From Verrucomicrobiota bacterium (lineage in GTDB: Bacteria > Verrucomicrobiota > Verrucomicrobiia > Limisphaerales > JACDHS01), in contig JACDHS010000003.1 of the NCBI GenBank assembly GCA_013820875.1, positions 26,952 to 90,951 of the forward strand: a stretch of 64,000 bases of DNA, in the 5' to 3' direction. The notes below the pieces were generated by a model. The model was given only the letters and a program-made list of their open reading frames with translations. It made no database searches and had not been told where the DNA came from. Made by a program: the position numbers and the translations under genes. Numbering within the stretch: position 1 is the stretch's first letter; each line of letters opens with the position of its first letter. Of this stretch, positions 13,793-47,587 are shown piece by piece.

Positions 13793-13795
13793 GGA

Positions 13796-14527: not shown

Positions 14528-14563
14528 GATGAAACATTGTAATCATTCAACAATTTAACAAAT

Positions 14564-16018: not shown

Positions 16019-16027
16019 TGTTAAAAA

Positions 16028-29270: not shown

Positions 29271-29331
29271 CCTGCCCAAAAGAACTGCGGCTGGGAATTT
29301 TTACCAGTCTATTGTTCTAAGAAAGGAACCT

Positions 29332-29820: not shown

Positions 29821-29832
29821 AAAATAGAGATT

Positions 29833-30018: not shown

Positions 30019-30071
30019 TCAATTTTTGGAGAGCGCGGACGTTCATTTGAACTATCGCGCTCTTTCCATTT

Positions 30072-31094
30072 ATGCGCATTGCCGTTGACGTCATGGGCGG
30101 CGACCACGGCCCAGGCGTAGTTATTGATGGTGTGAAAATCGCGTTGGAAAACGACGCGAAGATCACCGAGCTTTTTCTCGTTGGCAAAGAAGACGAAATT
30201 CACGCTGGCCTTAAGACCGCAGGGTGCCATGATCGGCGTGTGCGCGTTGTTCACGCCAGTGAAGTCCTCACCATGGAGGACAAGCCCGTCGAAGCACTCC
30301 GCAAGAAGAAGGATTCTTCCATTCTCCGCGCCGTTGACCTCGTTCGCGATGGCACGGCGGACGCAATCATTTCCCAGGGCAATACCGGTGGACTGGTTGT
30401 TTCGGCGCATATCCGCCTGCGGCCATTGCCCGGGGTGGAACGCCCAGCCATCGCCTGCATCATGCCGCGCGTTTTCGGCGAATGGGTTTTGCTGGATGCC
30501 GGTGCGAATCCCGAAGCCACACCGCTTCACCTGGCGCACAATGCGGTGATGGGAGCGGTTTATTATCGCTCGCTCATTGGCGGCAACAAACCGCGGGTGG
30601 GCATCATTTGCAATGGCAGCGAAGAGATCAAAGGCAACGACCTGACCCGCGAGGCACTGAGACTTTGCAAACAACTCGATCTGAATTTTGTCGGCTATGT
30701 TGAAGGTCCCGATTTATTTCAGGGCAAGGTGGATGTGGCGGTGGCGGATGGGTTCGTGGGCAATATTGTTTTGAAAACCATCGAAGGAATGGGTAAAGGC
30801 ATTCAGGAAATTTTGAAATCCGAATTGACCGCCACGCCACTCCGGAAATTGGGAGCAATGATTGCCAAAGACGGCTTGCGCGGTCTGAAACGCCGCATGA
30901 ATCCTGATTGCCACGGCGGAGCGCAGGTTCTCGGTTTGAATGGTAATGTCATCAAAGTGCATGGTTCGGCCAAGGCGGTGGTGATTGCCAATGCCGTGCG
31001 TCAGACCGGGACGGCGTTCAAGAAAAATTTGAATCAGTTGATCGCAGCAGAAATTGCGAAAGCGAACGAACGACTTCAGCTTCCAGCAGCATGA
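30072..31094 (+). CDS. plsX: Phosphate acyltransferase PlsX
   Basis: Contains RIAVDVMGGDHGP and ISQGNTGG. 340 aa. Its stop overlaps the fabH start (ATGA). Confidence 0.92.
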   Translation: MRIAVDVMGGDHGPGVVIDGVKIALENDAKITELFLVGKEDEIHAGLKTAGCHDRRVRVVHASEVLTMEDKPVEALRKKKDSSILRAVDLVRDGTADAIISQGNTGGLVVSAHIRLRPLPGVERPAIACIMPRVFGEWVLLDAGANPEATPLHLAHNAVMGAVYYRSLIGGNKPRVGIICNGSEEIKGNDLTREALRLCKQLDLNFVGYVEGPDLFQGKVDVAVADGFVGNIVLKTIEGMGKGIQEILKSELTATPLRKLGAMIAKDGLRGLKRRMNPDCHGGAQVLGLNGNVIKVHGSAKAVVIANAVRQTGTAFKKNLNQLIAAEIAKANERLQLPAA

Positions 31095-32128
31095 GCCCAT
31101 CGATCCAGAAAAAATTCAAGAACCCTCGCGCGAAGCACGGCTTTCAAGGCCGGACCTGCTCGATAGCAGCAGTTGGTTCCTACGTTCCCGCGAAGGAATT
31201 AACAAATCAGGATCTTGAAAAGCTGGTTGATACGACGGACGACTGGATTACCTCCCGGACCGGGATCAAAGCGCGCCGTATCGCTGCTGAAGACGAATTC
31301 ACTTCGGACATGGCTGCAAAAGCTGCGTTGCGCGCCATGGTAAAGGGCGGTGTTAAACCGGAAGAAATTGATCTCATCATTGTTGCGACGATTACGCCGG
31401 ACATGCCGTTTCCTTCCACGGCCTGCTGGGTTCAACAGAAAATTGGCGCGCACAGAGCTGCGGCTTTCGACATTGAAGCGGCTTGTTCAGGTTTTATCTT
31501 CGCGCTCGAGATTGGGCAGCAATTCATCATGTCTCGCACTTACGACACCATCCTGGTGATCGGTGCGGAAAAACTTTCTTCCATCATCAATTGGAAAGAT
31601 CGCAATACCTGCGTCTTGTTTGGTGATGGCGCGGGCGCCGCCATTCTTCGCCATCGCCCTGCCGCCCATGGTTTGTTGACGGCATGCATGGGAGCGGATG
31701 GACGGAAAGCAGACCTGCTTTCCATGCCGGGAGGCGGCAGTCGTTGTCCTGCGACGATTGATTCTGTTTCCAACGGGCTGCATTTCCTGCGGATGGATGG
31801 CAAAGAAACTTTCAAGAATGCCGTCAACGCAATGTACACCGCCGCGCAAGAAGCATTGCGCCGTTGTGAAATTAATATTTCACAGATCGCCTGTATCATT
31901 CCGCACCAGGCGAATCGCCGCATCATTGACGCAGTGGGAGAACGTCTCGGTGTTCAGCCCGAGCAGGTATTTGTGAACCTCGACAAATACGGAAACACCT
32001 CTGCCGCCTCTGTGGCTATCGCTTTGGATGAAGCAGTGGAGCAAGAACGCATCAAGCAGGGGGACTTAGTTTTGTTAGTAGTCTTTGGCGCGGGGCTGAC
32101 GTGGGGTGCCGCCGTCATAGAATGGTGA
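31091..32128 (+). CDS. fabH: 3-oxoacyl-ACP synthase III
   Basis: Contains the active-site Cys in ACSGFIFAL, plus HQANRRI and GNTSAAS. Confidence 0.92.
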   Translation: MSPSIQKKFKNPRAKHGFQGRTCSIAAVGSYVPAKELTNQDLEKLVDTTDDWITSRTGIKARRIAAEDEFTSDMAAKAALRAMVKGGVKPEEIDLIIVATITPDMPFPSTACWVQQKIGAHRAAAFDIEAACSGFIFALEIGQQFIMSRTYDTILVIGAEKLSSIINWKDRNTCVLFGDGAGAAILRHRPAAHGLLTACMGADGRKADLLSMPGGGSRCPATIDSVSNGLHFLRMDGKETFKNAVNAMYTAAQEALRRCEINISQIACIIPHQANRRIIDAVGERLGVQPEQVFVNLDKYGNTSAASVAIALDEAVEQERIKQGDLVLLVVFGAGLTWGAAVIEW

Positions 32129-34276: not shown

Positions 34277-34807
34277 GTGATCGGTTTTTTACGTTTCATT
34301 GGAGTTGTAAATGCAGCGATCTGGTTTGGATCGGCGATCTTCTTTACGATTGTCGCCGGTCCAGCTTTTTTTTCCGATGAGATGGAGAGGTTGATCCGGC
34401 CTCCCTACAATGGCGCTGCTGCTCAAGTCCTGCTCAAACGCTATTTTTACCTGCACTATTGGTGTGGTGGAATTGCAGTGATTCATCTTCTCTTAGAACG
34501 CCTTTATACGGGGAGATCCTTTGAGCGTTTTACTTCTGTTCTGTTGGCTGCAATCCTTGGCTTCAGCTTGCTCGGCGGCTTTTGGTTGCAACCCAGGCTA
34601 AAGGAGCTTCATTACATCAAGTACAGTGCAGCAACTGCTGAAGAGCGGGCGGAAGCGGATAAATCATTTGGCGCATGGCATGGGGTTTCGCAAACCATGA
34701 ATCTCTTTGTGACAGCGGGCCTACTGTTTTACTTGTGGCGTGTCACCAGTCTGAATCATCCCGCCAGGGTCCCAGGCTTCCGAAAACTATCTGTGGGTTG
34801 GAAATAA
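34277..34807 (+). CDS. DUF4149/TMEM205-like integral membrane protein
   Basis: 176 aa with 4 hydrophobic helices. The N-terminus IGVVNAAIWFGSAIFFTIVAGPAFF is typical of that family. Confidence 0.5.
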   Translation: MIGFLRFIGVVNAAIWFGSAIFFTIVAGPAFFSDEMERLIRPPYNGAAAQVLLKRYFYLHYWCGGIAVIHLLLERLYTGRSFERFTSVLLAAILGFSLLGGFWLQPRLKELHYIKYSAATAEERAEADKSFGAWHGVSQTMNLFVTAGLLFYLWRVTSLNHPARVPGFRKLSVGWK

Positions 34808-34856: not shown

Positions 34857-35552
34857 TTGTCTCTGACCAATTGTAACTTGCTAATGCCGCGTGTAACTCA
34901 TTGGATTTTTCGTGCCCTGGCCCGAATCGTTTTTTTATGGACGATGCGAGTTGAGGTGATTCGATCAGAAAGAGCGCACCGTTCTGGCCGCTACGTTATT
35001 GTCTGCAATCATATCAGCCATTTGGATCCGGTTTGTTTAAGTGTGATCTTGCGCCGAAGAATCGATTGGATGGCGCGGATCGAATTTTTCCGAAATCCGT
35101 TTTCTTCATGGCTGATGAAATCGGTGGACGCTTTTCCCGTGAACCGGCAGGGGTTGGCATTGCGAGGAATTAGAACGGCCATCGAGCGACTGAAACAGGA
35201 TCGGGTGGTCGGCATTTGCCCGGAAGGTGAAGTAACTCGGGGAATGAATTCTGCGCTGCGGGGCGGAGCTGTCAAAAAAGGCGCTTTGTTAATCGCCTGC
35301 CGTGCGGATGCGCCTATTCTGCCGTGCGTTATCCTGGGAACGGAGCAGTTGGATAAGGTTAAAACGTGGTTGCCGTTCCGAAGGGGCAAGTTGTTACTGA
35401 TCTGCGGCTCGTTCATTGAGCCGAACGCAAGTGCCAAAGGAACGCGCAAGCAGGTTCGTGAAGCGATGCGTTGTGAATTGCAACAAGCGTTCGTCAGTCT
35501 CTACGCGGAGGCTCGCCGAACCCACGGCATCAAAGACGAGCAGGTTCCGTAG
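34857..35552 (+). CDS. Lysophospholipid (PlsC-family) acyltransferase
   Basis: Contains the HX4D motif CNHISHLDP and CPEGEVTRG. The start may be the ATG at 34884. Confidence 0.8.
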   Translation: MSLTNCNLLMPRVTHWIFRALARIVFLWTMRVEVIRSERAHRSGRYVIVCNHISHLDPVCLSVILRRRIDWMARIEFFRNPFSSWLMKSVDAFPVNRQGLALRGIRTAIERLKQDRVVGICPEGEVTRGMNSALRGGAVKKGALLIACRADAPILPCVILGTEQLDKVKTWLPFRRGKLLLICGSFIEPNASAKGTRKQVREAMRCELQQAFVSLYAEARRTHGIKDEQVP

Positions 35553-35581
35553 ATTGGGCCTCGCGGCATGAACAACTTCGA

Positions 35582-36658
35582 ATGAAAAAATTCGCACTGA
35601 CTGCCCTCCAGGCAACAATAACTGTTGTTCTTCTTTGGTGGATTTTTTCTGATGACGCTCTGCGTTCGGGCATGGCGCGGACATTTCGCTCGGCGGACAC
35701 GAATTGGCTTCTGCTCGGAATAGCGGTAGCTGGCATTGGGGTGTTGAGCGGCATTTGCCGTTGGCGGATTTTCTTGCAGATTCAGCAAATTCCCGTGAGT
35801 TGGTGGCGGACCACACAGCTTTATATGATCGGGCTGTTCTTTAATCTTCTCTTTCTCGGCGCGATCGGTGGAGATGTGATCAAGGTGCTTTGCCTGGCGA
35901 AAGATAATCCAGGGCGACGAACGGCTATCGTTTTGTCGGTTGTGGCAGATCGGTTAAGTGGACTGCTCGCACTCGTGACTGTGGCATCGATTTTTACCCT
36001 CGGCAGATATGGTTGGTTTACGCAAAACCCGGCGGCTGCGGGGATGCTTTGGTTTTTGCTGGGGTATTTGGTTTTCTCGGTGCTGGGAGTGGCGTTTTCG
36101 TTTCTCGTCGCGAGAATGGGTGTGGCCGAAAAAATGCCGCGCCGCGTGCCGGGACGGGCTAAGTTTATAGAATTATCAAAGTCTTATCATCTCTTCGCCA
36201 GCGCCTGGAAACCGACGTTGTGCGCCGCATTGATTTCGTTCGTCGGTTTATTTGCGCATTACGGAACTTTTTATTGCAGTGGGCGCGCGTTCCAGCCATC
36301 CCCTTCCCTGTTGGATATGTATTCCATCATGCCGGTCGTGGACGTAATTTCTTCGCTTCCCATTGCCATTTCGGGATTGGGAGTTCGCGAGAAATTATTT
36401 GAAGAGTTGCTGGGAAGTCTCAGCGGAATTCCGGGGGAAACCGCTCTGTTGATTTCTCTGGCTGGGTTTGCGGTCTCTGTCGTCTGGAGCGTGGTGGGGG
36501 CTGGGATTTTTCCATTTTACCGTTCAGAAACAGCACGGCGTCACGAAAGCATACGTGATCTGCTGAAAGGCACGCACAGCTTGGATGGTGTCGAAAAAAA
36601 CGCGGAACCCATGCCCACTCAACAAAGCTGTTCATCGGTCGGAACCACGAACGAATAA
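35582..36658 (+). CDS. UPF0104 / lysyl-phosphatidylglycerol-synthase transmembrane-region (flippase-like) family membrane protein
   Basis: 358 aa with about 8 TM helices and the signature LGAIGGDVIKVLCL. It converges on the deacetylase gene and overlaps its 3' end by 40 nt. Confidence 0.7.
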   Translation: MKKFALTALQATITVVLLWWIFSDDALRSGMARTFRSADTNWLLLGIAVAGIGVLSGICRWRIFLQIQQIPVSWWRTTQLYMIGLFFNLLFLGAIGGDVIKVLCLAKDNPGRRTAIVLSVVADRLSGLLALVTVASIFTLGRYGWFTQNPAAAGMLWFLLGYLVFSVLGVAFSFLVARMGVAEKMPRRVPGRAKFIELSKSYHLFASAWKPTLCAALISFVGLFAHYGTFYCSGRAFQPSPSLLDMYSIMPVVDVISSLPIAISGLGVREKLFEELLGSLSGIPGETALLISLAGFAVSVVWSVVGAGIFPFYRSETARRHESIRDLLKGTHSLDGVEKNAEPMPTQQSCSSVGTTNE

Positions 36659-37398
36659 CCCATTTGGGCCAATTCTTCCACCACCAACCCGATGCATTCG
36701 TTGCTTGAGGCTTGCTTGTTCGAATCTAAACGTCCTTCGTGCAAGAGAATAATATCGCCAGGTCGCACGAGTGATTTGATGCGTTTGGCAACTGCTATTG
36801 GATTGCAGACAATGCCATCCTTCCCTTTAAGACTCCATGCGATCAATCGCATGCCATGGTTTGCGAGGATCGGTTGTAGAAAAAGACTTTTGATTCCCAC
36901 CGGTGAACGGAACCAGTTCGGCTGCAATCCCGTGGTCTGTTTTAACGCGTCGTTGCACGAGGCAATTTCGCTTCTGATGTAACGAGGTGGGTAACACCAG
37001 AAAAGGGCAGCAGGATGGGTGTGGGTATGGTTCGCCAGAGTATGGCCGGCCGCCAGAAGCGGTCCGGCAAGACGCGCGTGCTTAAGGAGATACTGTCCTT
37101 TGACGAAGAAGGTGGCTCGAGCGTTATGCCGCGCAAGAATTTCGATCAACTGCTCCGTGTTTGTTCCATCCGGGCCGTCATCAATCGTCAACCAGACTTC
37201 TTTCCTGGCCGTCTTAAACCGGGTCACAACCGGAACCAGCCAATTGCAAGCCGGTTGGAAGATCGCGTACGCCAGCATGCAGTAAGCGAAAACAGTGATG
37301 ATGATTGCAAACCAGTTTCCACCGCTCAACCCGATAGCTGCCAGCCCAAACAGCGTGAAGCCGAGCAATTGGTGGCGTGGATGATAGCGCGTTTTCAA
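36619..37398 (-). CDS. Polysaccharide deacetylase (NodB homology domain), membrane-anchored
   Basis: Contains WLTIDDGPDG, TFFVKG and LANHTHTHP, with two N-terminal TM helices. Confidence 0.85.
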   Translation of the reverse strand: MKTRYHPRHQLLGFTLFGLAAIGLSGGNWFAIIITVFAYCMLAYAIFQPACNWLVPVVTRFKTARKEVWLTIDDGPDGTNTEQLIEILARHNARATFFVKGQYLLKHARLAGPLLAAGHTLANHTHTHPAALFWCYPPRYIRSEIASCNDALKQTTGLQPNWFRSPVGIKSLFLQPILANHGMRLIAWSLKGKDGIVCNPIAVAKRIKSLVRPGDIILLHEGRLDSNKQASSNECIGLVVEELAQMGYSFVVPTDEQLC

Positions 37399-37408
37399 CG
37401 GGTTGAAT

Positions 37409-38068
37409 TCAGGTTTTACGCCTTGCGACGAAGAGATAACTGTTGAACGGCGTTTTACCCCACAGCGGCTTTACCTCCGTGACAAAACCGAGTTCTGCGA
37501 AAATGGTGGTGACGCTTTCAGCCGTGGGGAAGCAAAGCGTTGGCGCTTTCATCCAGCGGAATGCGTGCAGCAAAAATTCTTCGAAGACCGTTAACTTGAA
37601 ACGCCAGCTTGAATCCCTCGGAGTGGTGCGAATGATGCAAACTCCATTGATCGGGATTTGTTCCGTCACTTGCCGTAAGAGCGCACGCTGTGCTTCTTCA
37701 CTCAAATAATGCAAGACATCGAAAATGACGACGTTACCACAGAATTCCACAGGCGTGCCGCCATCCTGCACGAGGAATTGAACGTTCGCATAACGCCCTG
37801 CGGCAACCTTGCGCGCTGACTCAATCTTCCGTTCATCCAGATCAACACCGATCACCGGCGTATCAATCCCAAGTTCGCGAAGATAGAACGCGAACAACCC
37901 CATCCCACAGCCAATATCGAGAATCGGTAAATCGGATTTTTCCAGCAACTCCACTGCAGCACGATAGACAGGATCCGAGCGCAACTTCCCGCGGGCATAA
38001 CCTTGCAACCAGCGCGATGGGTAACATCGGGCGATGCGTTCGATTCGCTGTTGTTCGTCAGAAGTCAT
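37409..38068 (-). CDS. Class I SAM-dependent methyltransferase
   Basis: ILDIGCGMGLFAFYL is motif I and VVIFDVLHYL is also present. 219 aa. Confidence 0.8.
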   Translation of the reverse strand: MTSDEQQRIERIARCYPSRWLQGYARGKLRSDPVYRAAVELLEKSDLPILDIGCGMGLFAFYLRELGIDTPVIGVDLDERKIESARKVAAGRYANVQFLVQDGGTPVEFCGNVVIFDVLHYLSEEAQRALLRQVTEQIPINGVCIIRTTPRDSSWRFKLTVFEEFLLHAFRWMKAPTLCFPTAESVTTIFAELGFVTEVKPLWGKTPFNSYLFVARRKT

Positions 38069-38173
38069 TCTTATTAACGAAATGGAAAGAAGATGAACTT
38101 GAACGGCTTCATGCTGTAATCCCGCAAACCTTTCGCACCGGGTCGATTCCGTGCGATTCGTTCGAGCGGTCGT

Positions 38174-39631
38174 TCATCGTTTGATTTTTCCGCTGGGTGT
38201 TTGCGGCAGGGCTTCCACAAATGCGAACTGCACGGGGATTTTGTATTGGGCGAGAGCGGCTCGACAATGGGAGATGAGGGCCGGAATGGACGGTGGTTTT
38301 TCCGGGTTGTCCGCGATGATTTCTGCAACAGGCATGGATCCGAGAAAGGGGTGGGCTTTTCCAAAAACGCGCGCCGCACGAACCTCCGGATGGGCACAAA
38401 GCACAGATTCGATTTCTTCCGGAAAACATTTCATCCCGGCAACGTTGATGACCGAATGCGTGCGGCCCACCAGGTGCAGGTGCCCATCCGCATCCTTCGT
38501 CGCGAGATCGCCGGTGCGAAACCAGCCGTCCTCCAGGATATGCTGCCGCGTTCGCCAGGGAATCAGATAGGCATCCGTCATTCCCGGCCCGCGTAGAAAC
38601 AACTCGCCTGGTTCCCCGTCAGGAACCTCACCGCCGTCGGGATCGCGCAGTTCGGCCGTAAAGCCGGGTTGCGGACGTCCGATCGAGCCGGGCTTTTCGT
38701 GCGCGGCATCGGTGTTCAAAATGGAAAGGCCGACTTCAATGATGCCAAGCCCCTGCGCGAGCGGAAGCCCGAACCGTGACTGAAACGCCAACGCAGTGGC
38801 AGAGGGCAGGGGGGCAGCGGTGGAAACTGCGAGACGCAACGTGGGCCAATCCAACCCGGAAAGATCCCCGGCGAGCATGTTGTGATGAAACGGCGCTGCG
38901 TAAAGAATCGTGCCGCAATGCTTGCGACCCGCGTTCAAAACATCCAGCGCAAGATGCGCTGAAACGAGAATCGTCGTTGCGCCATGATACAGATACAGCA
39001 CGATGGAAACTGCGAAATGGTGGGCCATCGGCAAAATCCAGACCACGCGATCTTCGGGGCCAATCTTCAGGCCATGATTGGCGACAGTAATGCGTTCGAG
39101 CAACGTTTCATGCGAGAGCACAATGCCTTTGCTCTTCCCGGTTGTCCCGGAGCTGAAACGAATCAGGGCGGGATTCAGGGCGGCGAAATCGGCTTCGTCA
39201 AATTCCGTTGGGGCATTCGCCACTTCATCCATGGCAAACAACAGTGTGGCGCAAAAACGCGGACACTGAATCTGCACCGTTGATCCCCCTGGATGTTGCC
39301 ACATGCCGCCTTCGCCGATCAGCACGGCATTGACCTTCGTGACGCGGATCAGTGCATCGCGTTCTCGTGCTGGCAATTCCCCAGCGACCGGAACAAGACA
39401 TCCGCCCCCGCGCAAAATAGCGAGCGCGAGCACGACATGAGCGATCCCATTCGGGCAACTTAAACCAATCCGCGCCACACCATTGGACTGAAAGGCGCCA
39501 GCGTCACGCATCTGCTTTGTGAGAGTATCCACCAGTTGTGTGAGTTCACCAAAAGTGAGTGAATCATCCTCGCTGATGATCGCGATGGCATTGGGATTCG
39601 CCCGTTGAAAAATGGAATCTACAATGTTCAT
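38174..39631 (-). CDS. AMP-dependent synthetase/ligase (fatty-acyl-AMP/CoA ligase-like)
   Basis: Contains FSSGTTGKSKGIVLSH, GDLATKDADGHLHLVGR and the C-terminal PQTPSGKIKR. Confidence 0.85.
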   Translation of the reverse strand: MNIVDSIFQRANPNAIAIISEDDSLTFGELTQLVDTLTKQMRDAGAFQSNGVARIGLSCPNGIAHVVLALAILRGGGCLVPVAGELPARERDALIRVTKVNAVLIGEGGMWQHPGGSTVQIQCPRFCATLLFAMDEVANAPTEFDEADFAALNPALIRFSSGTTGKSKGIVLSHETLLERITVANHGLKIGPEDRVVWILPMAHHFAVSIVLYLYHGATTILVSAHLALDVLNAGRKHCGTILYAAPFHHNMLAGDLSGLDWPTLRLAVSTAAPLPSATALAFQSRFGLPLAQGLGIIEVGLSILNTDAAHEKPGSIGRPQPGFTAELRDPDGGEVPDGEPGELFLRGPGMTDAYLIPWRTRQHILEDGWFRTGDLATKDADGHLHLVGRTHSVINVAGMKCFPEEIESVLCAHPEVRAARVFGKAHPFLGSMPVAEIIADNPEKPPSIPALISHCRAALAQYKIPVQFAFVEALPQTPSGKIKR

Positions 39632-40924
39632 TTACAAAGTTGTATAGCGTTGCGCAAAAGGGATCATGATACGATCGCGGCTCGCCGTGACCTCCGCAGC
39701 ATCGACCCAATCAGACGCTTGATGACTCATCAAGGCTGCAGCAATTCCAGCAGCTTCACCAGTAGCGAAGCAGGTGCCGATCACGCGAATGGAACCTTGC
39801 GCCCCGTGGCTGCTCGAAATGCAGCGGCCCGCTGCGAAAAGATTATGGACCCGTTTTGAGCGCAGTGCGCGAAGTGGAATCTCACATGGCTGATTGTTTT
39901 CGGGAAAACGCAATCGCGCGCCGGTGGCCTGTTCGCGCATCTCCATCGGCCAGGTGGCGAGTGCAACAGCATCAGGAAAGCGCGCTCCGTTCAGGATGTC
40001 CGCATCTTCGATCCGATATTCGCCAATCATCCTCCGGCTTTCACGAATCCCGACACGAGCCGGAAGCGCGGCGATGTAGCTCTCCGCAAATCCTTCCACT
40101 TCAGATTTTAAAAATTCAGCTAACGCCCCGGCCAATTCGCGTCCATGCGCTTCCAGGCCAGAAAGGCACTTTGGATTGGTTGGATTGTATTCGAGCCCCG
40201 GCGGGCCATTGAGGTCCACGGTGACAAACGCTTCCCCGTTGCGTCCGCTGCCGCGGAGTGCCGCGCCCATGGCCCCGCGCGGCAAACGCCCAGCGCGAAC
40301 TGCCGTTGCTATTTCATGGGCAATACGGAGGCGTCCTGCATCCGCGAGTGTTTCTTCCCGCACACCTTGCAATGCGAAGATGAACGCGGGGCGTTGCAGT
40401 TTTTGGCTTTCCTCCTGTTCGCAATCGGCGCCAGCGAGCGACGCCAGGGCTGCATCACCCGTGGCATCAATGACCACTTTTGGCTGGATGATTTCGCGAA
40501 CACCGCGGCAACACGTTTCCAGTGAATCAACACGTGTCGTCGCCTGCACCCCAATGAGCTCGGTGTGGAATCGCACTTCGAGATTGGGCGTTTCCTGAAC
40601 CAAAGCATCCGCCAGCCGTGCAAAGGCCGTGGGATGTTGCAAAAGAACATCCACGCGCCCCATGCGAATGGGACCATGCGTTCCGCCTGCTTTGGAAAGG
40701 CGCAAAGCGAACTCAGAAGGAAATCCCGGATTGGCCAGAACAGCTCCCGGTTCAGAACGGAGCAGATACAGTCCGCAGAACGAATGGATCAACGCCGCCG
40801 TTGCCATGCCCCCCAGCGAGCCATGTCGTTCTAATAAAACCGTGTGAGCGCCGGTTCGTGCGGCAGCGATTCCCGCCGCTAATCCGGCGCTTCCTCCGCC
40901 TGCCACAAGCACGTCGCACCGCAT
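39632..40924 (-). CDS. FAD-dependent oxidoreductase
   Basis: I set the start at ATG 40922-40924, giving MRCDVLVAGGGSAGLAAGIAAARTG with GxGxxG at the N-terminus. This lies 1 nt after the upstream TAG. The track start at 40969 would overlap the upstream gene by 44 nt. Confidence 0.8.
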   Translation of the reverse strand: MRCDVLVAGGGSAGLAAGIAAARTGAHTVLLERHGSLGGMATAALIHSFCGLYLLRSEPGAVLANPGFPSEFALRLSKAGGTHGPIRMGRVDVLLQHPTAFARLADALVQETPNLEVRFHTELIGVQATTRVDSLETCCRGVREIIQPKVVIDATGDAALASLAGADCEQEESQKLQRPAFIFALQGVREETLADAGRLRIAHEIATAVRAGRLPRGAMGAALRGSGRNGEAFVTVDLNGPPGLEYNPTNPKCLSGLEAHGRELAGALAEFLKSEVEGFAESYIAALPARVGIRESRRMIGEYRIEDADILNGARFPDAVALATWPMEMREQATGARLRFPENNQPCEIPLRALRSKRVHNLFAAGRCISSSHGAQGSIRVIGTCFATGEAAGIAAALMSHQASDWVDAAEVTASRDRIMIPFAQRYTTL

Positions 40925-40925
40925 A

Positions 40926-42317
40926 CTAAACGGCCTCGGCGAGTTGCTGAACCGCAATGGTGCGGACACCGCCCATCAGGTCTTCGATAAATTGCGAAAG
41001 TAACAACTTCCGTTCGCTGTCGCTGATGACCCCTTCTCTCCAGGAGAAGGTGATGGTCAGAAGCCCGTTTCTTTCACTGAGAAAAATGCCCGTGCCGGGC
41101 GGTGTCGAAACCGTCGGGACGTGATAGCCATTCGTCAGTTCGGCGCCGCACACCGATTTCAGATCCGGCGCAAAGGCGCCGGTGTGCGAATGAAAAAAGC
41201 AGGTCAGTTCCCCGCCGAATTGACGGCGCAAGAATTGCGTGTAAAGCCACGACGGCAACCGGCGCATCAAATTGAGCACGGTGGAAAATGATTCATCCAA
41301 CCGGTGCCGCGTCATATCGGAAAACTGGTTCTGCACTGTATGAACAGCGGTTTCCACAGTCGTGAGATCATCCGGCGTAAAATGGAAGAACAGGATGCTG
41401 ACCTGATTTTGAAAAATGGCGCTGGCCCCTTTGCGGCGGGTTTGCACGGGCAGGCTGATGATGAACGATTCCGGAGTGATCCCGCGTTGTTGCAGCACAC
41501 GGGCATGAGCGCGAGTGGCGCAAGCCAGGTAGAATGGCATGTTGAGCAAGGACGACCGTTGCGCGCGATTTTTGATTTCCGCGCTATCCCTGGCATCAAG
41601 CGTCACGATCTGACAACAGGCTTTGCCCGGCTTCGGAACGGGCCCGCCGAGGGAAGTGAACTTTGTCCGCACCAACTTGGAAAAACGTTGGACGAACGCT
41701 TTTGACCGGTCCATCTGCTGGCGAACCGGCAGGTTTTCCTTCGGCGGTTCGATTGCGCGAGGATGGGCCGGGGCATTTGGCTCACTCAATCGCGCCAGTT
41801 CGATCAGCAATAACTCCGCGCCGATTCCATCGAACAGAAGGTGTGTCCAGGTGGCTGCGAGCAAAACCTGCCCATCACGCTGTTCAATCAAATCAAAGCG
41901 CACATTGTTCCACTCGCGCTTCATCGCGAGGGGCGTGTTAAGAATATGCACAAGAAATGCAGGCGATGATTCAATGACTTCGGCTTTTGGAAACAATTGG
42001 CCCGGTGACTCTTTCTCGCGCCACAAAGAAACTGGCAAACTTCGATTAACCTGTGCAGGGACTTTCCAATAAGCTCCGGAAAAGAATGTTCGGCGGATTG
42101 GAGCGATCAGAATGGGATGACGGGTTGTCAGTTCCCGAACTGCATTCTGAAACTTTTCGAGGTTAAACCCGGCCCCGAGTTCCACGATGGTTTGCCCGAG
42201 ATGTTCGCCCTGCCCGGTGCGTTGCATAACAGTATCGAGTGCCAGGAGGAAGCTGTCACAACCGCGAAGAAATACTTTGGATGGAATAGTGGGCGTGGCC
42301 GGGGCGGGGTTATTCAT
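40926..42317 (-). CDS. Condensation-domain-like (HxxxDG) acyltransferase
   Basis: 463 aa. WTHLLFDGIGAELLL matches the HxxxDG catalytic motif of NRPS condensation/PapA5/WS-DGAT-type enzymes. The start overlaps the ACP stop (TAATG). Confidence 0.65.
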   Translation of the reverse strand: MNNPAPATPTIPSKVFLRGCDSFLLALDTVMQRTGQGEHLGQTIVELGAGFNLEKFQNAVRELTTRHPILIAPIRRTFFSGAYWKVPAQVNRSLPVSLWREKESPGQLFPKAEVIESSPAFLVHILNTPLAMKREWNNVRFDLIEQRDGQVLLAATWTHLLFDGIGAELLLIELARLSEPNAPAHPRAIEPPKENLPVRQQMDRSKAFVQRFSKLVRTKFTSLGGPVPKPGKACCQIVTLDARDSAEIKNRAQRSSLLNMPFYLACATRAHARVLQQRGITPESFIISLPVQTRRKGASAIFQNQVSILFFHFTPDDLTTVETAVHTVQNQFSDMTRHRLDESFSTVLNLMRRLPSWLYTQFLRRQFGGELTCFFHSHTGAFAPDLKSVCGAELTNGYHVPTVSTPPGTGIFLSERNGLLTITFSWREGVISDSERKLLLSQFIEDLMGGVRTIAVQQLAEAV

Positions 42318-42595
42318 TATTTCGAAGGAGGCACACCAAGCCGGCTATGGAGCAACTGCGCGACGGTGAGCGGGGTATTGAAATTCTCGCGGGTTAAGTC
42401 CGACGGTTGCAGCCACAGCCCATATTTTTCGTCAATCAAGAGCAGTAATTGCATGATCGCCATGGAATCGAGTCCTAATTCAAACAGGTTGCTGCTCGTA
42501 GCAAAAGTGGGCGGTACCTCCAAAAGTCTTTGGCTGATCAAGACAGCGAGTTCTTCTGCAAGAGTTTCAAGTTTCGGGGGCGGGTTGGATTCCAT
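42317..42595 (-). CDS. Acyl carrier protein (stand-alone)
   Basis: 92 aa. LGLDSMAIMQLLLLIDEKYG is a phosphopantetheine-attachment DS motif. Confidence 0.85.
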   Translation of the reverse strand: MESNPPPKLETLAEELAVLISQRLLEVPPTFATSSNLFELGLDSMAIMQLLLLIDEKYGLWLQPSDLTRENFNTPLTVAQLLHSRLGVPPSK

Positions 42596-43106
42596 GCTGC
42601 GGTTGCTTGTGACAGTTTCGCCGCAGTTTCAAGGATGGTTTCGGCTCGTTCAAGACTATTTGCCATTATTTTGGGTCAGTACGAGTAGCTCTCCGGAAAC
42701 GGGAAAAGCCCCAGGGTATTTGGTCATGTTTTCCCGCCCTTTCCGAACCCATGACAAGGCTTGTTAACGAAATTGTAAGACCATGCGCGAGCATGTCGCA
42801 CGAATTAGGCAATCCTGTTGATGGAACTATCCACGACTTTAAATATCTAAGAATTCAGCGCTGGTTAACTCGGGACTGGAAAGTCCCGAGAACTGGCACG
42901 CTGGAAAGCCTGCCACTACGTAGTGGCAGGTTTTCCAACCTGCCAGTTCGGGCCACTTTCCAGTGGCCAGTTCATTTTCCTCGGCTATCGCAATTTGCTG
43001 CGCATTGATCTCCACGTTGTAACCCCTCCCATTCATCCTTCAGTAAGCAACTTGACCAGCGAGATTGAACTTGCCCCCGGGCAGGCCAAACCACTGTAAT
43101 CAGTAG

Positions 43107-43802
43107 ATGCGTTTTGTCCCTTCCGTCCTTGTCCGATTTTCAGCGCAATGCCTTCTTTTATGTCTGCTTGTTTCTTTATCAGCTTCTGCCTCGGCATCGC
43201 CGGACATGGCTCTGATCCGGGAATGGATTGATCAACAAAAGGGGATCGAAAGTCTCCAGACCGATTTTACCCAAAGCCGAACCCTGAAAACACGGAAGGC
43301 ACCACTCGTCAGCAACGGGACTTTCGCATTTCAAGCGCCTGATTCTCTTCGCTGGCAGGTGGGCGAACCGGTGCAGGAGGTGGTTCTTCGAAATGGCAGA
43401 TCGCTCTACCTCATATCTGCTCAAAAGAAAAAAGCCAAACATCTGGTCGCCGACACGATCAGCGAGAAGACCCGGATGCAATCGTTGGGCATGATGGAAT
43501 TTCCATTTGTAAAAGACTTCGCCGATTTCGAGCGGCAATTTGATGTGGTGAATGTGAAAACGGTGGATGACCAATGCGATCTCGAACTAGCTCTCAAGGA
43601 CAAACGCGCCGCTCGTTACATCAAGAAAATGTTGCTCTCGTTTCAAGTGAAAACCGGGAATCTTGTCGTCTTCGAATTGCAGTTCCGCGACGGCTCAAAA
43701 CTGCGAAACGACTTTTCAAACATCCGCGTGAACCAACCAATGGATTCAAAAATATTTACCTACGACCTGACCGGCTTCCGGGTTAGCGAAGAAAAAGACT
43801 AA
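43107..43802 (+). CDS. LolA-like outer-membrane lipoprotein carrier family protein
   Basis: Has a signal peptide. FTQSRTLKTRKAPLVSNGTFAFQAPDSLRWQV matches the LolA pattern F.Q...sG.....P..fRW. Confidence 0.75.
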   Translation: MRFVPSVLVRFSAQCLLLCLLVSLSASASASPDMALIREWIDQQKGIESLQTDFTQSRTLKTRKAPLVSNGTFAFQAPDSLRWQVGEPVQEVVLRNGRSLYLISAQKKKAKHLVADTISEKTRMQSLGMMEFPFVKDFADFERQFDVVNVKTVDDQCDLELALKDKRAARYIKKMLLSFQVKTGNLVVFELQFRDGSKLRNDFSNIRVNQPMDSKIFTYDLTGFRVSEEKD

Positions 43803-43992
43803 CCACGGAATGATCATTTTCGGAAAAAAACAGATATGAACGGTGGTTTGGCACGAATTGGAGATAGAACAGGAACGGCCGGGAAATCCCCATGGAGAGC
43901 CCTGTTCCCTTTCGTGGAAAGTTCGTGCAATTCGTGTCACAGAACTTCCCGTCCATGGTTAAAAGCCAGGTTGCAATAGCTCCACCGCATTC

Positions 43993-46425
43993 ATGATTCG
44001 CAGCAGGTTATTTAAAATCGTCCTCGCGATCTTTGTTGCGGCGCTGGTCACTCTTGGTCTCTCCCGCATCAGCTTCAATGTGGACATCCTCAAACTGCTG
44101 CCACAGCAGTTGAACGAAGTTCAGGGCTTGTCGCTTTATCTCAAACATTTTGCGCGCCACACGGAGCTCATGATCACGCTGGAGGCTGAAGATTCCGGCG
44201 ATGCCGAAGTCTTTTCCGATTCGCTCGCTGAGTTTCTCCGAGAACGACCTGATCTCATCAAGAGCGTGGTGCATCGCGCCCCTTGGGAGGATCAGGCGTC
44301 CGAAACTTCTGAAATCATCGCCTGGCTTTGGCTCAGTCAACCTCCCGGTCAAGTCGAAGCACTGCTGGCACGGCTCGGCTCGGATGAAGTCGCGAAGACA
44401 TTGGACAAAACGGTCCAGGAACTTAGCACTTCAATGGCGGTCCAGGAGGTCGCCACACTCAGCTACGATCCGTTGCGGTTGACTGACGTCATTGCCGAAG
44501 GAATGCAGGACAATGCCGGGCAATCAGAGTTTTCGTCTGCCGACGGCACGTTTCGCGTCCTCTATGTGGAGGCGCCGGCGCGTCTTGCAAACTACCGGGA
44601 AATCATTGGTTGGGTGCATGATGTCAAAGCATTATTGGCCGAATGGAAAAGCGCGGAAGAGGGTGGCGACAACGTTTCGATTGGAGTGACGGGTGAGCCT
44701 GCGTTTGTGGCGGAGATATCCGGTGGAATGGAACGCGACATGCACGTCTCGGCAGGTTCCACCATCATGATTATCGGGATCATTTTCTGGCTCTTCTATC
44801 GCAGGGTAAAACCGCTCAATTATTTGTTGCTGCTGTTGGTCGCGGTGTTTGTCGGATCGCTCGCCGTCTCCGGATTCGTGCTGAACGAACTGACCGTCAT
44901 CAGCGTGGGCTTCGCTTCGATCCTGATTGGACTGAGCGTTGATTATGGAGTGGTTCTCTATCAGGAATTGCTCGGCAACGATGTGCAAGCCGCAAAACGC
45001 CGTGCCCGTTCAGGAATTATCTGGGCGGCACTCACCACTGCGGCGGCTTTCGCATGTTTGAACGCAAGCGGATTACCCGGATTGGCGCAGTTGGGCACGA
45101 TGGTTGCCATCGGCGTCCTGCTGGGCGCTTTTGTGATGCTGACTTTTCTCCCGAACCTGGTCTTCAAGTCTGCAACACAATCTCCGCAGAACACTCCGAG
45201 TGGACCGATTGACGCGTTCTTGAATTCGGCAAAGGCATTGAAAGGCGTCGCTTTCACGATTGTCATCACCCTTCTCGTCCTCGGAGCAGCCCTCTGGATG
45301 AAAGGCTTGCCAGAACTCGAAAGCAATTCGCGTCCGTTGCGTCTGCGACACAGCCTCGCTTACGAGACGATGGACCGGATCTACATGAAGCTGGCGGATT
45401 CGCGAGAGATGCTGACGTTGCTGGTCTCGGGCAAAAACCCGGAACAGGTCCAAACGCGTCTTAGTGCTGTGGACGCCAAACTGGCCGTTATGGAAACCAA
45501 CGGCTTGATCAATCAAAGCATGTTGCCCGTGGCATTCTGGCCCGTTGCCAAAAATCAGAAAACCAATCTCGAACGGCTCAAGTCGTTGACCGCTCGCAAG
45601 GAGTCTCTGAAGGAACAAGTTTTGGCCGCCGATTTTACCGACGAATCTTTCCTGTTGGTGGAATCGGTGATGCAGCATTGGGACGACTGGAGTTCGCGTG
45701 AGCCGATGATCTGGCCGGAAAACGATGTGAGCCGATGGATGCTCCGGCAGAACGTGTTTCATGACAGTGAAAATTTTCTCGCTGTCGGTCTGGTTCGCCC
45801 GGTGGATGCGCGATCGGAAGCGTTTCAAAACGCGCTGGATGGCTTGAAGTCCGAAGGCATTTACATAGCAGGCTGGGAACAACTCGGGCGTTCAGTCACG
45901 GATTCAGTTTCGGAAGAAATGTTGAAAGTCCTCCTGTTACTGATGGGAGTCTTGCTGCTGATGCTGAGTTTGGCATTTCGCAATGTGCTGGAAGTGGCAC
46001 TGATTTTTGGATTGCTCGCGCTAAGTTTTGTTTCGTTGTTGGGAGCGATGGCGTTGCTTGGTTTAACCTGGAACCTATTCAACCTGACTGCGTTGTTGTT
46101 GCTTCTCGGCACCGGTGTGGATTACAGCATCCACATCCTGCTCGCGTTGCGAAAGAGCGGAGGCAATGTTATCGAAGTGCAAAAGACGACCGGCAAAGCG
46201 ATTCTGGTTTGCGGGTTGTCCACATGCGCCGGTTTCGGTTCGCTCAGTTGGGCAAGCAATATCGGCCTCGCAAGTCTCGGCCAGGTTTGTGCGCTCGGAA
46301 TTTTGTTAAACCTGCTGATTTCGGTTTTCCTCCTGCCACACCTTTGGATTTGCTTTGCAGGGAAAGGGCGGATGCAAACATCCAATCTACCGATCTCCTC
46401 TGATTGTGCTGTGGAAAAGAAGTGA
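43993..46425 (+). CDS. MMPL/RND-superfamily exporter
   Basis: 810 aa with two 5-6-TM bundles, each preceded by a large soluble domain. The N-terminal TM is followed by the predicted-exporter architecture. Confidence 0.75.
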   Translation: MIRSRLFKIVLAIFVAALVTLGLSRISFNVDILKLLPQQLNEVQGLSLYLKHFARHTELMITLEAEDSGDAEVFSDSLAEFLRERPDLIKSVVHRAPWEDQASETSEIIAWLWLSQPPGQVEALLARLGSDEVAKTLDKTVQELSTSMAVQEVATLSYDPLRLTDVIAEGMQDNAGQSEFSSADGTFRVLYVEAPARLANYREIIGWVHDVKALLAEWKSAEEGGDNVSIGVTGEPAFVAEISGGMERDMHVSAGSTIMIIGIIFWLFYRRVKPLNYLLLLLVAVFVGSLAVSGFVLNELTVISVGFASILIGLSVDYGVVLYQELLGNDVQAAKRRARSGIIWAALTTAAAFACLNASGLPGLAQLGTMVAIGVLLGAFVMLTFLPNLVFKSATQSPQNTPSGPIDAFLNSAKALKGVAFTIVITLLVLGAALWMKGLPELESNSRPLRLRHSLAYETMDRIYMKLADSREMLTLLVSGKNPEQVQTRLSAVDAKLAVMETNGLINQSMLPVAFWPVAKNQKTNLERLKSLTARKESLKEQVLAADFTDESFLLVESVMQHWDDWSSREPMIWPENDVSRWMLRQNVFHDSENFLAVGLVRPVDARSEAFQNALDGLKSEGIYIAGWEQLGRSVTDSVSEEMLKVLLLLMGVLLLMLSLAFRNVLEVALIFGLLALSFVSLLGAMALLGLTWNLFNLTALLLLLGTGVDYSIHILLALRKSGGNVIEVQKTTGKAILVCGLSTCAGFGSLSWASNIGLASLGQVCALGILLNLLISVFLLPHLWICFAGKGRMQTSNLPISSDCAVEKK

Positions 46426-46444: not shown

Positions 46445-47587
46445 TCAACTCGCCTTATGCGTGCAAACCAAATCTTTTGCGGGATCAACACCCCATCGCT
46501 CTGCCTCGATTAGGTGATCATTGGAAATACCCCAGCGATCCGGTTGCGGTTCGCCGATGTGACCCGGATTAGCGCCCTTCAATTCCATGCAACCCTTGTT
46601 GTTGCCGATGTGCGCAATCCGTTCGCAATCCTCTTCGTCGATTTTGATTTCCGGTAACTGCGCCAGTTCATCCACCTTGGATTCGATCGATTTCGCCTTG
46701 GCACCGATCTCTTGAATGATCGTTGGCACCACGCTTTCCACCGCGCGCTGGGTGAGATTCCACAAGCAGGCGAGTTGCAGCATCGTGACGTTATACTTCT
46801 CCGCCATCTCGCGAAGTTGGTTTAGCTTTTCGTAACCGGTTTCGACCCAGCCATCCGGACGGAACGAACGATGATCCTGCGCTCCGAATTCGTGACCGGG
46901 TTTGACGTCGTCATGAAAAATGCCGCCGTAATCCACCACCCGCGTGATCAGTTTTACCTTCTGCGCTTCAGCCGCTGACAAAATCATGTTCCCCGGCCAC
47001 GGTTCGAATGGATTCAAAATAATCATCCCCCAATCGAGCAACGGCCCGAAACGTTCGAAGTTGAGAAGGATGTCGAGCGTGAAGCCATTGGCAGGGCCAG
47101 GAGCGATGCCGATCCGATCGCTCAACTTCTCTTCCTTCAAACTGTTCATCGCCGTCCAAACCGCATCGCTCGTGTAACCGATCGAATCCGGATTGTGCAA
47201 CATCAGCAGATCGAACTTATCTGTGCGACAACGTTCCAAAGATTTCTCCGTGGCCATGCGCAGGTAATCTTTGAACTCTTTTGGCTGACGCAGTGTTGGA
47301 TCGGTAAAGCGAGGAAAACCTTTGGATCCCTGGCGTTGTCCTTTGTAAAAATCGTGCCCGATCATGCCGACGAGACAGTAGGATTCGCGCGGCAAACCAG
47401 CGAGGGCACGACCGAGCATGTCGTCCGCGGCGCCGACACCGTAAACATCCGCCGTCATGAAGGTGCGAACGCCCATCTTGTAAGCATGTTGCACCACACT
47501 GATCCAGCGTTCATCCGACAACGCTTCGCCGTAATGCATGAAGCGGCCGCCATTCCAGGTCCCGTAAACTGTGCGAGTCAAATCCAT
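46445..47587 (-). CDS. Aldo/keto reductase family oxidoreductase
   Basis: 380 aa. Contains FMTADVYG, LLMLHNPD and other AKR-like TIM-barrel motifs. Confidence 0.75.
   Translation of the reverse strand: MDLTRTVYGTWNGGRFMHYGEALSDERWISVVQHAYKMGVRTFMTADVYGVGAADDMLGRALAGLPRESYCLVGMIGHDFYKGQRQGSKGFPRFTDPTLRQPKEFKDYLRMATEKSLERCRTDKFDLLMLHNPDSIGYTSDAVWTAMNSLKEEKLSDRIGIAPGPANGFTLDILLNFERFGPLLDWGMIILNPFEPWPGNMILSAAEAQKVKLITRVVDYGGIFHDDVKPGHEFGAQDHRSFRPDGWVETGYEKLNQLREMAEKYNVTMLQLACLWNLTQRAVESVVPTIIQEIGAKAKSIESKVDELAQLPEIKIDEEDCERIAHIGNNKGCMELKGANPGHIGEPQPDRWGISNDHLIEAERWGVDPAKDLVCTHKAS

Follow-up and report, generated by a model that had tools for sequence, protein, structure and literature searches.

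What does a block of lipid-handling genes make when it encodes a carrier protein, a loading ligase and an exporter, and no synthase to build a chain? This question is raised by a 64,000-nucleotide stretch of contig JACDHS010000003.1, taken from the metagenome-assembled genome (MAG) of a soil Verrucomicrobium and hereafter called the window. Ten intact genes at 34857–46425 of the window include those for a stand-alone acyl carrier protein (ACP), a condensation-domain-like (C-like) enzyme, a PF12831 flavoprotein and an AMP-ligase, which together are referred to as the cassette. We propose that the block serves for starter loading, tailoring, lipid anchoring and export within a split pigment-lipid pathway of the xanthomonadin/aryl-polyene type, in its Verrucomicrobiota (Chthoniobacterales) version, a reading to which we give a probability of about 0.6, and that the chain-building genes probably lie elsewhere in the genome. 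What is new here is the cassette itself and the frequency with which the pathway is fragmented.

Linkage of the cassette to ketosynthase genes in related loci

Homologues of the C-like protein (248 matches) led to 44 further loci (numbered with the prefix L). Most of these come from Chthoniobacterales; the set also covers Chthoniobacter flavus Ellin428, which is in culture, an isolate of the Phycisphaerales, and one MAG each from Binatia and the deltaproteobacteria. The operon of ACP, C-like enzyme, flavoprotein and AMP-ligase recurred in about 45 loci, again mostly of Chthoniobacterales. The C-like gene lay less than 10 kb from a type II ketosynthase (KS) gene in 10 of 45 loci (L019, L022, L032–L034, L037, L042, L045, L046 and L052), with two KS-type genes each in L019 and L022. 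Six of those ten (L032–L034, L037, L042 and L045) held a block of KS, chain-length factor (CLF) and FabZ-like dehydratase (DH) genes, and the CLF-KS-DH block adjoined the cassette in L032, L033, L034, L037 and L042. KS and CLF were found in the homologous loci L032–L034, L037, L042, L045, L046, L049 and L052.

Locus L045, found with the KS of L033 as a query, is one contiguous cluster that holds every gene family of the block together with KS, CLF, DH, a family 2 glycosyltransferase (GT2) and two halogenases. It encodes a methyltransferase, the flavoprotein, a PlsC-type acyltransferase, GT2, a NodB-family deacetylase, an ACP, a halogenase, a fusion of an MMPL exporter with a Lip_A_acyltrans protein, a LolA-like protein, an ApeI-like DH, KS, CLF, the second halogenase, LPG_synthase_TM, the AMP-ligase, the C-like enzyme and, once more, an ACP. 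As every gene family of the window's block has a counterpart there, L045 supports the reading of a split pathway.

Other joint clusters vary in composition. Pfam searches of L033 identified KS (PF00109 and PF02801), a CLF-like protein that has the N-terminal KS domain alone and a FabA/ApeI-like DH, as well as Lip_A_acyltrans, GT2, a PagL-like outer-membrane protein and a PlsC-PAP2 fusion. The cassette of L046 stands beside KS and CLF, with two tandem ACP genes ahead of the C-like gene, and MMPL-Lip_A_acyltrans fusions of about 1070 aa occur in both L045 and L046. L049 is a KS-containing cluster with the window's accessory genes and carries a Na+/H+ exchanger, as does the arcuflavin cluster; the locus ends inside the AMP-ligase, so that the remaining cassette falls outside it. 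In L052 (1–15778), a distant cassette of ACP, C-like enzyme, PF12831 flavoprotein and AMP-ligase is accompanied by KS/CLF, GT2-DUF2062, Lip_A_acyltrans, three B12-binding radical SAM genes and a flavodoxin-like protein, a ladderane-like cluster of the type II fatty acid synthase (FASII) kind. LPG_synthase_TM is also found in the KS-containing clusters L042, L045 and L049. Relatives have one FabZ/ApeI-like DH and no cluster-encoded ketoreductase (KR). A preliminary description of the block, made from the sequence alone, had called its product class unpredictable and had placed a condensation enzyme and a deacetylase in the position of a polyketide synthase (PKS). The same cassette and NodB sit inside clusters with KS, CLF and FabZ-like DH, and since both enzymes belong to clusters holding a PKS, they do not replace one.

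Six contexts of KS orthologues, 57–71% identical to the L033 KS, were sampled. Three were joint clusters (L045, L046 and L049) and three were without the cassette, namely a KS-CLF pair alone, surrounded on a 194 kb contig by genes for respiration and housekeeping, KS-CLF-LolA-MMPL alone (L050), and a run of methyltransferase, flavoprotein, PlsC, ACP, Lip_A_acyltrans, DH, KS and CLF genes that lacks ligase, C-like enzyme, exporter and NodB. In a neighbour-joining tree of C-like proteins, built with no bootstrap, KS-adjacent loci were scattered amid KS-less loci, L042 was nested in a KS-less clade, and the window branched beside L003 and the clade of L045 and L046. Such scatter, as far as the sequences tell, agrees with a single pathway that was rearranged repeatedly. 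The simplest explanation for the scattered KS adjacency, the three split KS contexts and the divided arcuflavin system is thus that one pathway has become fragmented.

Search for chain-building genes and a possible route without a ketosynthase

The 64-kb window was searched with tblastn (E < 1e-4), with KS and CLF of L033 and L045 among the queries, and its remaining large open reading frames (ORFs) were compared with Pfam. Neither search found KS, CLF, DH, GT2, halogenase, patatin, Lip_A_acyltrans or chorismatase across the window. There was no type II KS and CLF pair, no FabA/FabZ/ApeI-like gene or short-chain dehydrogenase/reductase as a dedicated DH or KR, and neither a starter supply (chorismatase XanB2/FkbO or TAL) nor a halogenase within it. 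The local absence of KS, KR and DH stated in the preliminary description was thus confirmed, and KS partners were likewise missing immediately outside the block: no KS was found in the 10 kb past the right end of the window, where an Sfp-type phosphopantetheinyl transferase (PPTase) and a non-ribosomal peptide synthetase (NRPS) are encoded. The sole KS-type gene of the window is the housekeeping fabH in the yceD-plsX-fabH block (29332–32128), 2.7 kb upstream of the cluster. The whole housekeeping block (28791–32128, plus strand) comprises coaD, yceD, (rpmF), plsX and fabH, and genes for an FG-GAP repeat protein and a DUF4149 membrane protein stand between it and the cluster. A homology search with the L033 KS gave 4436 matches, and among the best 120 of these relatives of the cassette-linked KS none bore the name C. 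flavus or H0X66 (the C-like protein of the window is 100% identical to the NCBI hypothetical protein H0X66_01195). Small genes without Pfam matches in the KS-less loci were checked as hidden dehydratases, and none qualified, one being lipoprotein-like.

Several of these results weigh against a split pigment-lipid pathway. KS, CLF and DH genes of this genome were not found within the inspected 64 kb plus 10 kb, the window is also without GT2, halogenase, Lip_A_acyltrans and any starter-supply gene, and no Verrucomicrobial cluster seen encodes a KR of its own. About 34 of the 45 loci, including those of C. flavus Ellin428 and the window, have no KS, CLF or DH within 10 kb. A patatin-like gene was present in 19 of 35 KS-less and 0 of 10 KS-adjacent loci (Fisher p = 0.002, uncorrected for phylogeny) and could mark a different pathway. 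In addition, the best 120 of the 4436 KS matches contained no isolate-derived (UniRef-listed) KS, which hints weakly that a close orthologue may be missing from C. flavus. C. flavus is a species described as yellow.

The KS-less majority of loci, the confinement of patatin-like genes to KS-less loci and the lack of an isolate KS would suit a pathway independent of KS, in which an ACP-loaded aryl or other acid is passed directly by the C-like enzyme, with no chain extension, to a deacetylated aminosugar lipid or a lysolipid. We consider such direct transfer unlikely. The ten window genes are all intact, as this route would have it, and L003, which has no KS, combines a chorismatase with two ligases, the cassette, MMPL and NodB; however, KS adjacency is patchy inside single clades of the C-like tree, and the accessory gene set is that of polyene pigment clusters. 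The product reaching the outer membrane would be an aryl- or acyl-lipid without colour, with the hydroxybenzoate halogenated and O-methylated in relatives, an outcome that we likewise regard as doubtful. The KS-less calls on which it depends come from searches of the local neighbourhood, and detachment is demonstrably common because orthologous KS-CLF genes occur apart from the rest of the pathway. As split arrangements are common in the clade, local KS absence is weak evidence for a PKS-free pathway. It seems improbable, then, that a ligase-made (halo/methoxy)hydroxybenzoyl- or acyl-S-ACP is tailored by the flavoprotein, joined by the C-like enzyme to a NodB-deacetylated aminosugar lipid and exported by MMPL and LolA as a PKS-independent outer-membrane aryl-lipid. 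If true, this route would represent an undescribed lipid class with its off-loading enzyme and would be considerably more interesting.

Conservation of the gene set

Gene families were counted by all-against-all ORF clustering in 42 non-redundant loci. The C-like gene was present in all 42, the AMP-ligase in 38 (38–42 loci by orthologue counts), the PF12831 flavoprotein in 37 and ACP, counted together with ACP-C-like fusions, in 31. A halogenase-like flavoprotein was encoded in 27 loci, NodB in 22 (22–25 related loci by orthologue counts), MMPL in 22, LolA in 20, a patatin-like protein in 19, the methyltransferase in 17 (17–21 by orthologue counts; 52–56% identity), PlsC in 16 (16–18 by orthologue counts; 45–47% identity), Lip_A_acyltrans in 14 and LPG_synthase_TM in 7. 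The grouping of these genes is far beyond chance, the core genes co-occurring in 31–42 of 42 loci. The term orphan, which the preliminary description applied to the cluster, is thus inappropriate for a set of genes that is co-conserved in dozens of genomes including C. flavus Ellin428.

The conserved core reads (patatin)-ACP-C-like-flavoprotein-ligase-(halogenase). In 31 loci the ACP gene immediately precedes that of the C-like enzyme, and other loci have the two fused. The LolA-MMPL pair is kept in at least 20 loci, and MMPL orthologues of 40–44% identity occur in both KS-less and KS-containing loci. The window proteins are nearest to those of Chthoniobacter-type loci (44–62% identity). On a 1.95 Mb contig, L051 (3677–14769) contains the nearest long-contig relative of the flavoprotein (65% identity) in an ACP-flavoprotein-ligase group that has no C-like gene and carries on its flanks two halogenases, MMPL, Lip_A_acyltrans and LolA, indicating that the C-like enzyme is dispensable in some versions. 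In 19 KS-less loci, found among L001, L006–L021, L024, L026, L031, L039–L041 and L044, the gene just ahead of ACP encodes a patatin-like phospholipase; the window has no such gene.

Starter acid and flavoprotein

The AMP-ligase (38174–39631, minus strand; 485 aa; PF00501 and PF13193, E 6e-57) and the ACP (42317–42595, minus strand; 92 aa; PF00550, E 9e-9; phosphopantetheine site GLDSM) are both present, intact and translationally coupled in one operon. The ACP dependence stated in the preliminary description is upheld. In the ligase, the A3, A7 and A10 motifs were matched by SSGTTGKSKG, FRTGD and PQTPSGKI. Its neighbours in the PDB are feruloyl-, malonyl- and benzoate-CoA ligases, which do not thereby identify the substrate, and its top NCBIfam models are long-chain fatty-acid CoA ligases, all under cut-off.

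The preliminary description suggested that the acid is a pre-formed fatty acid, which the ligase would activate for transfer to the ACP and from there to an acceptor with an amine or hydroxyl group. The product of such a route would be a lipoamino or acylated glycolipid unrelated to aryl polyenes. The fatty-acid models of the ligase would agree with this proposal, as would the lack of halogenase and chorismatase in the window; the patatin-like lipase of relatives could supply a fatty acid, and starter C domains of the CDA-C1 type, which are structural neighbours of the C-like enzyme, acylate with fatty acyl-ACP. However, benzoate- and feruloyl-CoA ligases are matched in the PDB at equal scores, and orthologous cassettes, with ligases 56–59% identical, sit with WxWxIP halogenases, chorismatase and KS/CLF/DH. 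Halogenases with the WxWxIP motif (e.g. WFWMIP), with CmlS as the best match, occur in 27 related loci, and KS-less relatives carry one to three flavin-dependent halogenases. Furthermore, the KS-less L003 has an FkbO/Hyg5-type chorismatase beside its second ligase, in addition to the cassette, MMPL and NodB. Xanthomonadin synthesis is started by the chorismatase XanB2, the 3-hydroxybenzoic acid:ACP ligase XanA2 and the ACP XanC (PMC6859482). Because of the halogenases and chorismatase in relatives and this precedent, an aryl acid of the hydroxybenzoate type is more likely than a fatty acid to be loaded by the ligase, its putative aryl specificity being suggested by context in relatives only, and a pathway built on a pre-formed fatty acid appears very unlikely. 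A planctomycete route to dibromo-p-anisic acid was rejected as a relative, since its BaaA/BaaB chemistry works on the free acid and uses neither ACP nor ligase.

The PF12831 flavoprotein most likely starts at Met16 (39632–40924, minus strand; 430 aa), matching the 430-aa NCBI protein P0263. It matches PF12831, the FAD_oxidored family of FAD-dependent oxidoreductases, over its full length (E 9e-88; 295.8 bits against a threshold of 27), with the GxGxxG site GGGSAG at residue 9. Sequence and profile searches of the PDB matched only its N-terminal Rossmann motif. Its AlphaFold2 (AF2) model (pLDDT 93) found only generic FAD folds with Foldseek (TM 0.40–0.48), the neighbours being geranylgeranyl reductase-like proteins, aromatic hydroxylases, fumarate reductases and halogenases. 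It may be a hydroxylase, a desaturase or a halogenase.

The condensation-fold enzyme

The C-like gene (40926–42317, minus strand) encodes a stand-alone 463-aa enzyme with a weak Pfam Condensation match (E 7e-5). Its AF2 model (pLDDT 85.6, pTM 0.87) shows the two-lobed C-domain fold of the CAT/C-domain superfamily. The top Foldseek match was the stand-alone C-like AzeD (8s6l; E 1e-20, TM 0.73/0.78), a structure deposited both as ‘dehydratase’ and as ‘dimycocerosyl transferase-like’, followed by NRPS C, Cy and E domains (E 1e-16 to 1e-19), CDA-C1 and TRI3. The condensation-type fold assigned in the preliminary description is thus well founded. The HxxxDG motif is present as HLLFDG at residues 159–164, with the first His of HHxxxDG replaced by Thr; among 22 C-like homologues, H159, D163 and G166 are invariant and G164 is at least 90% conserved.

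The protein scored 22.2 bits against Pfam Condensation (PF00668; gathering score 30.6) and 24.2 bits against NCBIfam WS/DGAT (TIGR02946; threshold 310), and the best PDB profile match was 3e-5. Scores under the curated thresholds indicate that it belongs to a separate, unmodelled family within the superfamily, for which Pfam and NCBIfam have no curated model. At E <= 1e-30, a search of 1.84 billion representatives of 50%-identity clusters yielded 416 that belong to the family. Natural fusions of 544–608 aa with ACP at the N terminus occur (P0089, P0093, P0096, P0102–P0105, P0108, P0110 and others). We infer, from sequence and predicted structure, that the enzyme would move an acyl group from ACP to an OH or NH2 acceptor, since the ACP-C-like fusions, the translational coupling and the C-domain fold with invariant His and Asp all support acyl transfer from ACP. 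By analogy with AzeD/AmbE, dehydration chemistry may also be considered.

Organization and integrity of the block

The minus-strand operon has six genes in the transcription order ACP, C-like enzyme, PF12831 flavoprotein, AMP-ligase, methyltransferase and NodB. Given the Met16 start, the gaps between the first four are -1, 1 and 0 bases, as expected of one operon. The class I SAM-dependent methyltransferase (37409–38068, minus strand; 219 aa) matches Pfam Methyltransf_25/31/23 and contains ILDIGCGMG. The NodB-family deacetylase (36619–37398, minus strand; 259 aa; PF01522, Polysacc_deac_1, E 1e-26) is membrane-anchored by one N-terminal hydrophobic segment and has the metal/catalytic motifs TIDDG and HTHTH; it reached 104 bits with NCBIfam NodB, under cut-off.

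The remaining genes are on the plus strand. The PlsC/LPLAT-type acyltransferase (34857–35552; 231 aa; PF01553, E 2e-25) carries its HX4D motif as HISHLD at residue 52, and the LPG_synthase_TM/UPF0104 flippase-like membrane protein (35582–36658; 358 aa; PF03706, E 4e-36) has about seven hydrophobic segments. The LolA-like periplasmic lipid carrier (43107–43802; 231 aa; PF03548, E 5e-16) has an N-terminal signal-like hydrophobic segment, and its top NCBIfam model is LolA2_flexi, the LolA2 of flexirubin clusters (71 bits, under cut-off). The MMPL exporter, of the resistance-nodulation-division (RND) type (43993–46425; 810 aa; PF03176, E 1e-34), has about 11–12 hydrophobic segments and an HpnN-like top NCBIfam match, under cut-off. 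The LolA-like and RND/MMPL exporter pair of aryl-polyene/xanthomonadin clusters is thus present as adjacent plus-strand genes, and a lipid-anchor acyltransferase (PlsC with HX4D) and a class I methyltransferase accompany it, from the same families as in the arc and ape clusters. This sharing of gene families upholds the kinship with the tailoring and export part of aryl-polyene, xanthomonadin and flexirubin clusters that had been suggested. A hopanoid link was considered because HpnN-like MMPL and HpnL-like LPG_synthase_TM were the best models; it was rejected, the scores being far under cut-off and no hopanoid genes being present.

Between the ACP operon and lolA-mmpL lies a divergent intergenic region of 511 bp (42596–43106), presumed to be the promoter region; a promoter and terminator scan of the block gave chance level only. 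An ORF in this region (42751–43008; 85 aa) has no Pfam match and no conserved counterpart in the 44 related loci and is probably not a gene. Eleven genes had been stated for the block, but the count is ten, this ORF being the one other within its coordinates; all ten functional calls were recovered with Pfam and NCBIfam. The DUF4149 gene (34277–34807) and the FG-GAP gene upstream of it were rejected as cluster members, as neither is conserved in any related locus.

An aldo-keto reductase (AKR; 46445–47587, minus strand; 380 aa; PF00248) adjoins mmpL in convergent orientation as a possible accessory gene of uncertain membership. It is 66% identical to an AKR (L046 7104–8252) two genes from the KS of L046, and these two places are the only ones in which it was seen; L046 is otherwise divergent from the window (C-like 41% and MMPL 30% identical). 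The AKR is either an accessory reductase, which would be notable given that KR is missing from every cluster, or a vestige of common ancestry of the two loci.

The block has the smallest gene set of all loci seen, being without halogenase, patatin, second PlsC, Lip_A_acyltrans and GT2. Together with the AKR that flanks the KS cluster of L046, which is compatible with a nearby deletion or rearrangement, this could be read as a functionless remnant of a complete cluster that lost KS, CLF, DH, GT2 and halogenase and makes no specific product. We judge such decay highly improbable. All ten genes are full length with no internal stops, the catalytic motifs, scanned for in seven of the ten proteins, were found with the A8 pattern of the ligase as the sole miss, and the translational coupling of the cassette is kept. 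Furthermore, a second contig (P0002/P0264, 78–81% identity) retains C-like and flavoprotein genes together.

Surroundings of the block

About 1.6–10.5 kb past the right end of the window, an Sfp-type PPTase (ACPS/AASDHPPT_N) is followed by a multi-module NRPS (C-A-T-TE, C-A-T, A-T-C-A-T; L047 11623–20474 and L048 5248–14099). The PPTase could also serve the cluster ACP. A protein at the right end of the window (62884–63357) is encoded identically, with the same neighbours, on L047 (GCA_020064125.1, JAITZQ012140273.1, 52.7 kb), which belongs to a second assembly with contig numbers in the millions, and also in the Logan assembly of SRR11719875, indicating that the organism was sampled in several data sets.

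A 1290-aa FtsK/SpoIIIE-family ATPase (52268–56140) is encoded near a WXG100-family small protein (57024–57296) and a PIG-L deacetylase (57544–58425), all on the minus strand. The FtsK/SpoIIIE-WXG100 combination is a type VII secretion-like pairing, unexpected in a Verrucomicrobium, and the WXG100 call was mapped from a Pfam match on the identical contig L047. A second, housekeeping PlsC lies beside cmk, aroA (EPSP synthase) and prephenate dehydrogenase genes at 13118–17045 (minus strand), and these shikimate-pathway genes lie about 18 kb from the cluster, probably by coincidence. Two giant secreted-type proteins of about 1800 aa are encoded at 7–5457 and 22981–28518 (both plus strand). The latter, which was the one of the two scanned, has He_PIG, fn3 and Big_9 repeats and an N-terminal Amidase_2 (N-acetylmuramoyl-L-alanine amidase) domain.

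Proposed pathway and its significance

Considering these results, we propose the following scenario for the split pigment-lipid pathway. By analogy with XanA2/XanC, the AMP-ligase would adenylate an aromatic acid, most likely a hydroxybenzoate, and load it on the adjacent ACP. KS/CLF and a FabZ-like DH from elsewhere in the genome, probably with the FabG of fatty-acid synthesis, would extend it to a polyenoyl-ACP, and the methyltransferase and the flavoprotein may tailor the ACP-bound intermediate. The C-like enzyme would then take the acyl group from ACP and attach it, at a hydroxyl or an amine, to a glycolipid anchor in the membrane, as the ACP-C fusions, the HxxxDG motif and the structure of aryl polyene lipids suggest. 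PlsC would build this anchor by an ApeD/ArcD-like acylation, and the membrane-bound NodB would unmask it and could expose the amine of an aminosugar. By analogy with ApeM/ApeL, LPG_synthase_TM, MMPL and the LolA-like protein may take the completed lipid through the inner membrane and on via the periplasm to its place in the outer membrane.

The hand-over of the pigment from carrier protein to membrane anchor is still only proposed elsewhere, with ApeJ as the candidate. In the Verrucomicrobial version, the genes of a C-like enzyme and a PF12831 flavoprotein stand between that of the ACP and that of its loading ligase, and NodB is added. If the C-like protein is indeed the off-loading enzyme, it would offer a testable alternative mechanism of anchoring and a way into the study of envelope lipids in soil Verrucomicrobia, which are abundant. 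In this clade, half of the KS loci sampled and most of the loci with the cassette stand physically apart, so that KS-anchored rules of the antiSMASH kind would probably miss such fragmented aryl-polyene clusters.

Comparison with known systems

The closest parallels in gene content are considered here first with xanthomonadin-type clusters (Xanthomonas pig/xan; Azoarcus arcA-L plus arcM-X). Shared with them are an AMP-ligase and a stand-alone ACP for starter loading (XanA2/XanC), a SAM methyltransferase, a polysaccharide deacetylase, a PlsC-type acyltransferase, a LolA-like protein and an RND/MMPL exporter, and, in relatives of the window, chorismatase and flavin halogenases. The arcuflavin system of Azoarcus sp. 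BH72 is itself split: arcA-L comprise KS, CLF-like, DH, KR, glycosyltransferase, acyltransferase, chorismatase and halogenase, and arcM-V comprise methyltransferase, polysaccharide deacetylase, exporter, LolA, acyltransferase, DH, AMP-ligase and ACP (PMC3949708), the deacetylase being listed as arcN (PMC3949708). As in the window, accessory genes are separate from the KS/CLF/DH/KR locus. In contrast, the arc table has no condensation-fold enzyme or PF12831 flavoprotein, the hypothetical genes arcO and arcU being unannotated and left out of the comparison; furthermore, the Verrucomicrobial clusters seen are without a dedicated KR, and the window is without halogenase, chorismatase, glycosyltransferase and DH.

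The aryl polyene (APE) clusters of E. coli CFT073 and Xenorhabdus doucetiae (apeA-S) share ACP dependence, an AMP-ligase (ApeH), a methyltransferase (ApeB) and an LPLAT-type acyltransferase (ApeD), as well as LolA-like ApeL and MMPL ApeM for delivery to the outer membrane, and their product is an acylated aminosugar-phosphoglycerolipid. The APE lipids of Xenorhabdus are APE esters of GalNAc-1-phosphate-diacylglycerol that are exported by ApeM/ApeL (10.1101/2020.12.19.423268); ApeD acylates the glycerolipid, and ApeJ glycosylates it and attaches the APE (10.1101/2020.12.19.423268). Attachment is thus ascribed there to the glycosyl/acyltransferase ApeJ, whereas the window has an ACP-adjacent, stand-alone C-domain-fold enzyme and NodB. 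No equivalents of ApeG, ApeK, ApeN, ApeQ and ApeP were recognised in the block, and KS/CLF/DH are absent locally.

With PapA5, AzeD and NRPS starter C domains such as CDA-C1, the C-like enzyme shares the two-lobed CAT/C fold (TM 0.67–0.78), HxxxDG and, as the ACP fusions imply, a carrier-bound donor, although sequence identity is only 10–16%. Deacetylation followed by N-acylation is the logic of Nod factor synthesis (NodB/NodA with the ACP NodF) and of lipid A synthesis (LpxC/LpxD). The likeness to the window may be one of functional analogy only, in that a NodB-family deacetylase is encoded with an ACP and a putative ACP-dependent acyl-transferring enzyme; the block has no NodA, NodC or Lpx homologues, and the window lacks a glycosyltransferase, whereas relatives have GT2. 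Candidate ladderane clusters of Kuenenia and Desulfotalea list radical SAM enzymes, CoA ligase, oxidoreductase and glycosyltransferase (PMC2649909). The likeness to such FASII-like clusters runs via the cassette of L052 only, and the window is without radical SAM genes.

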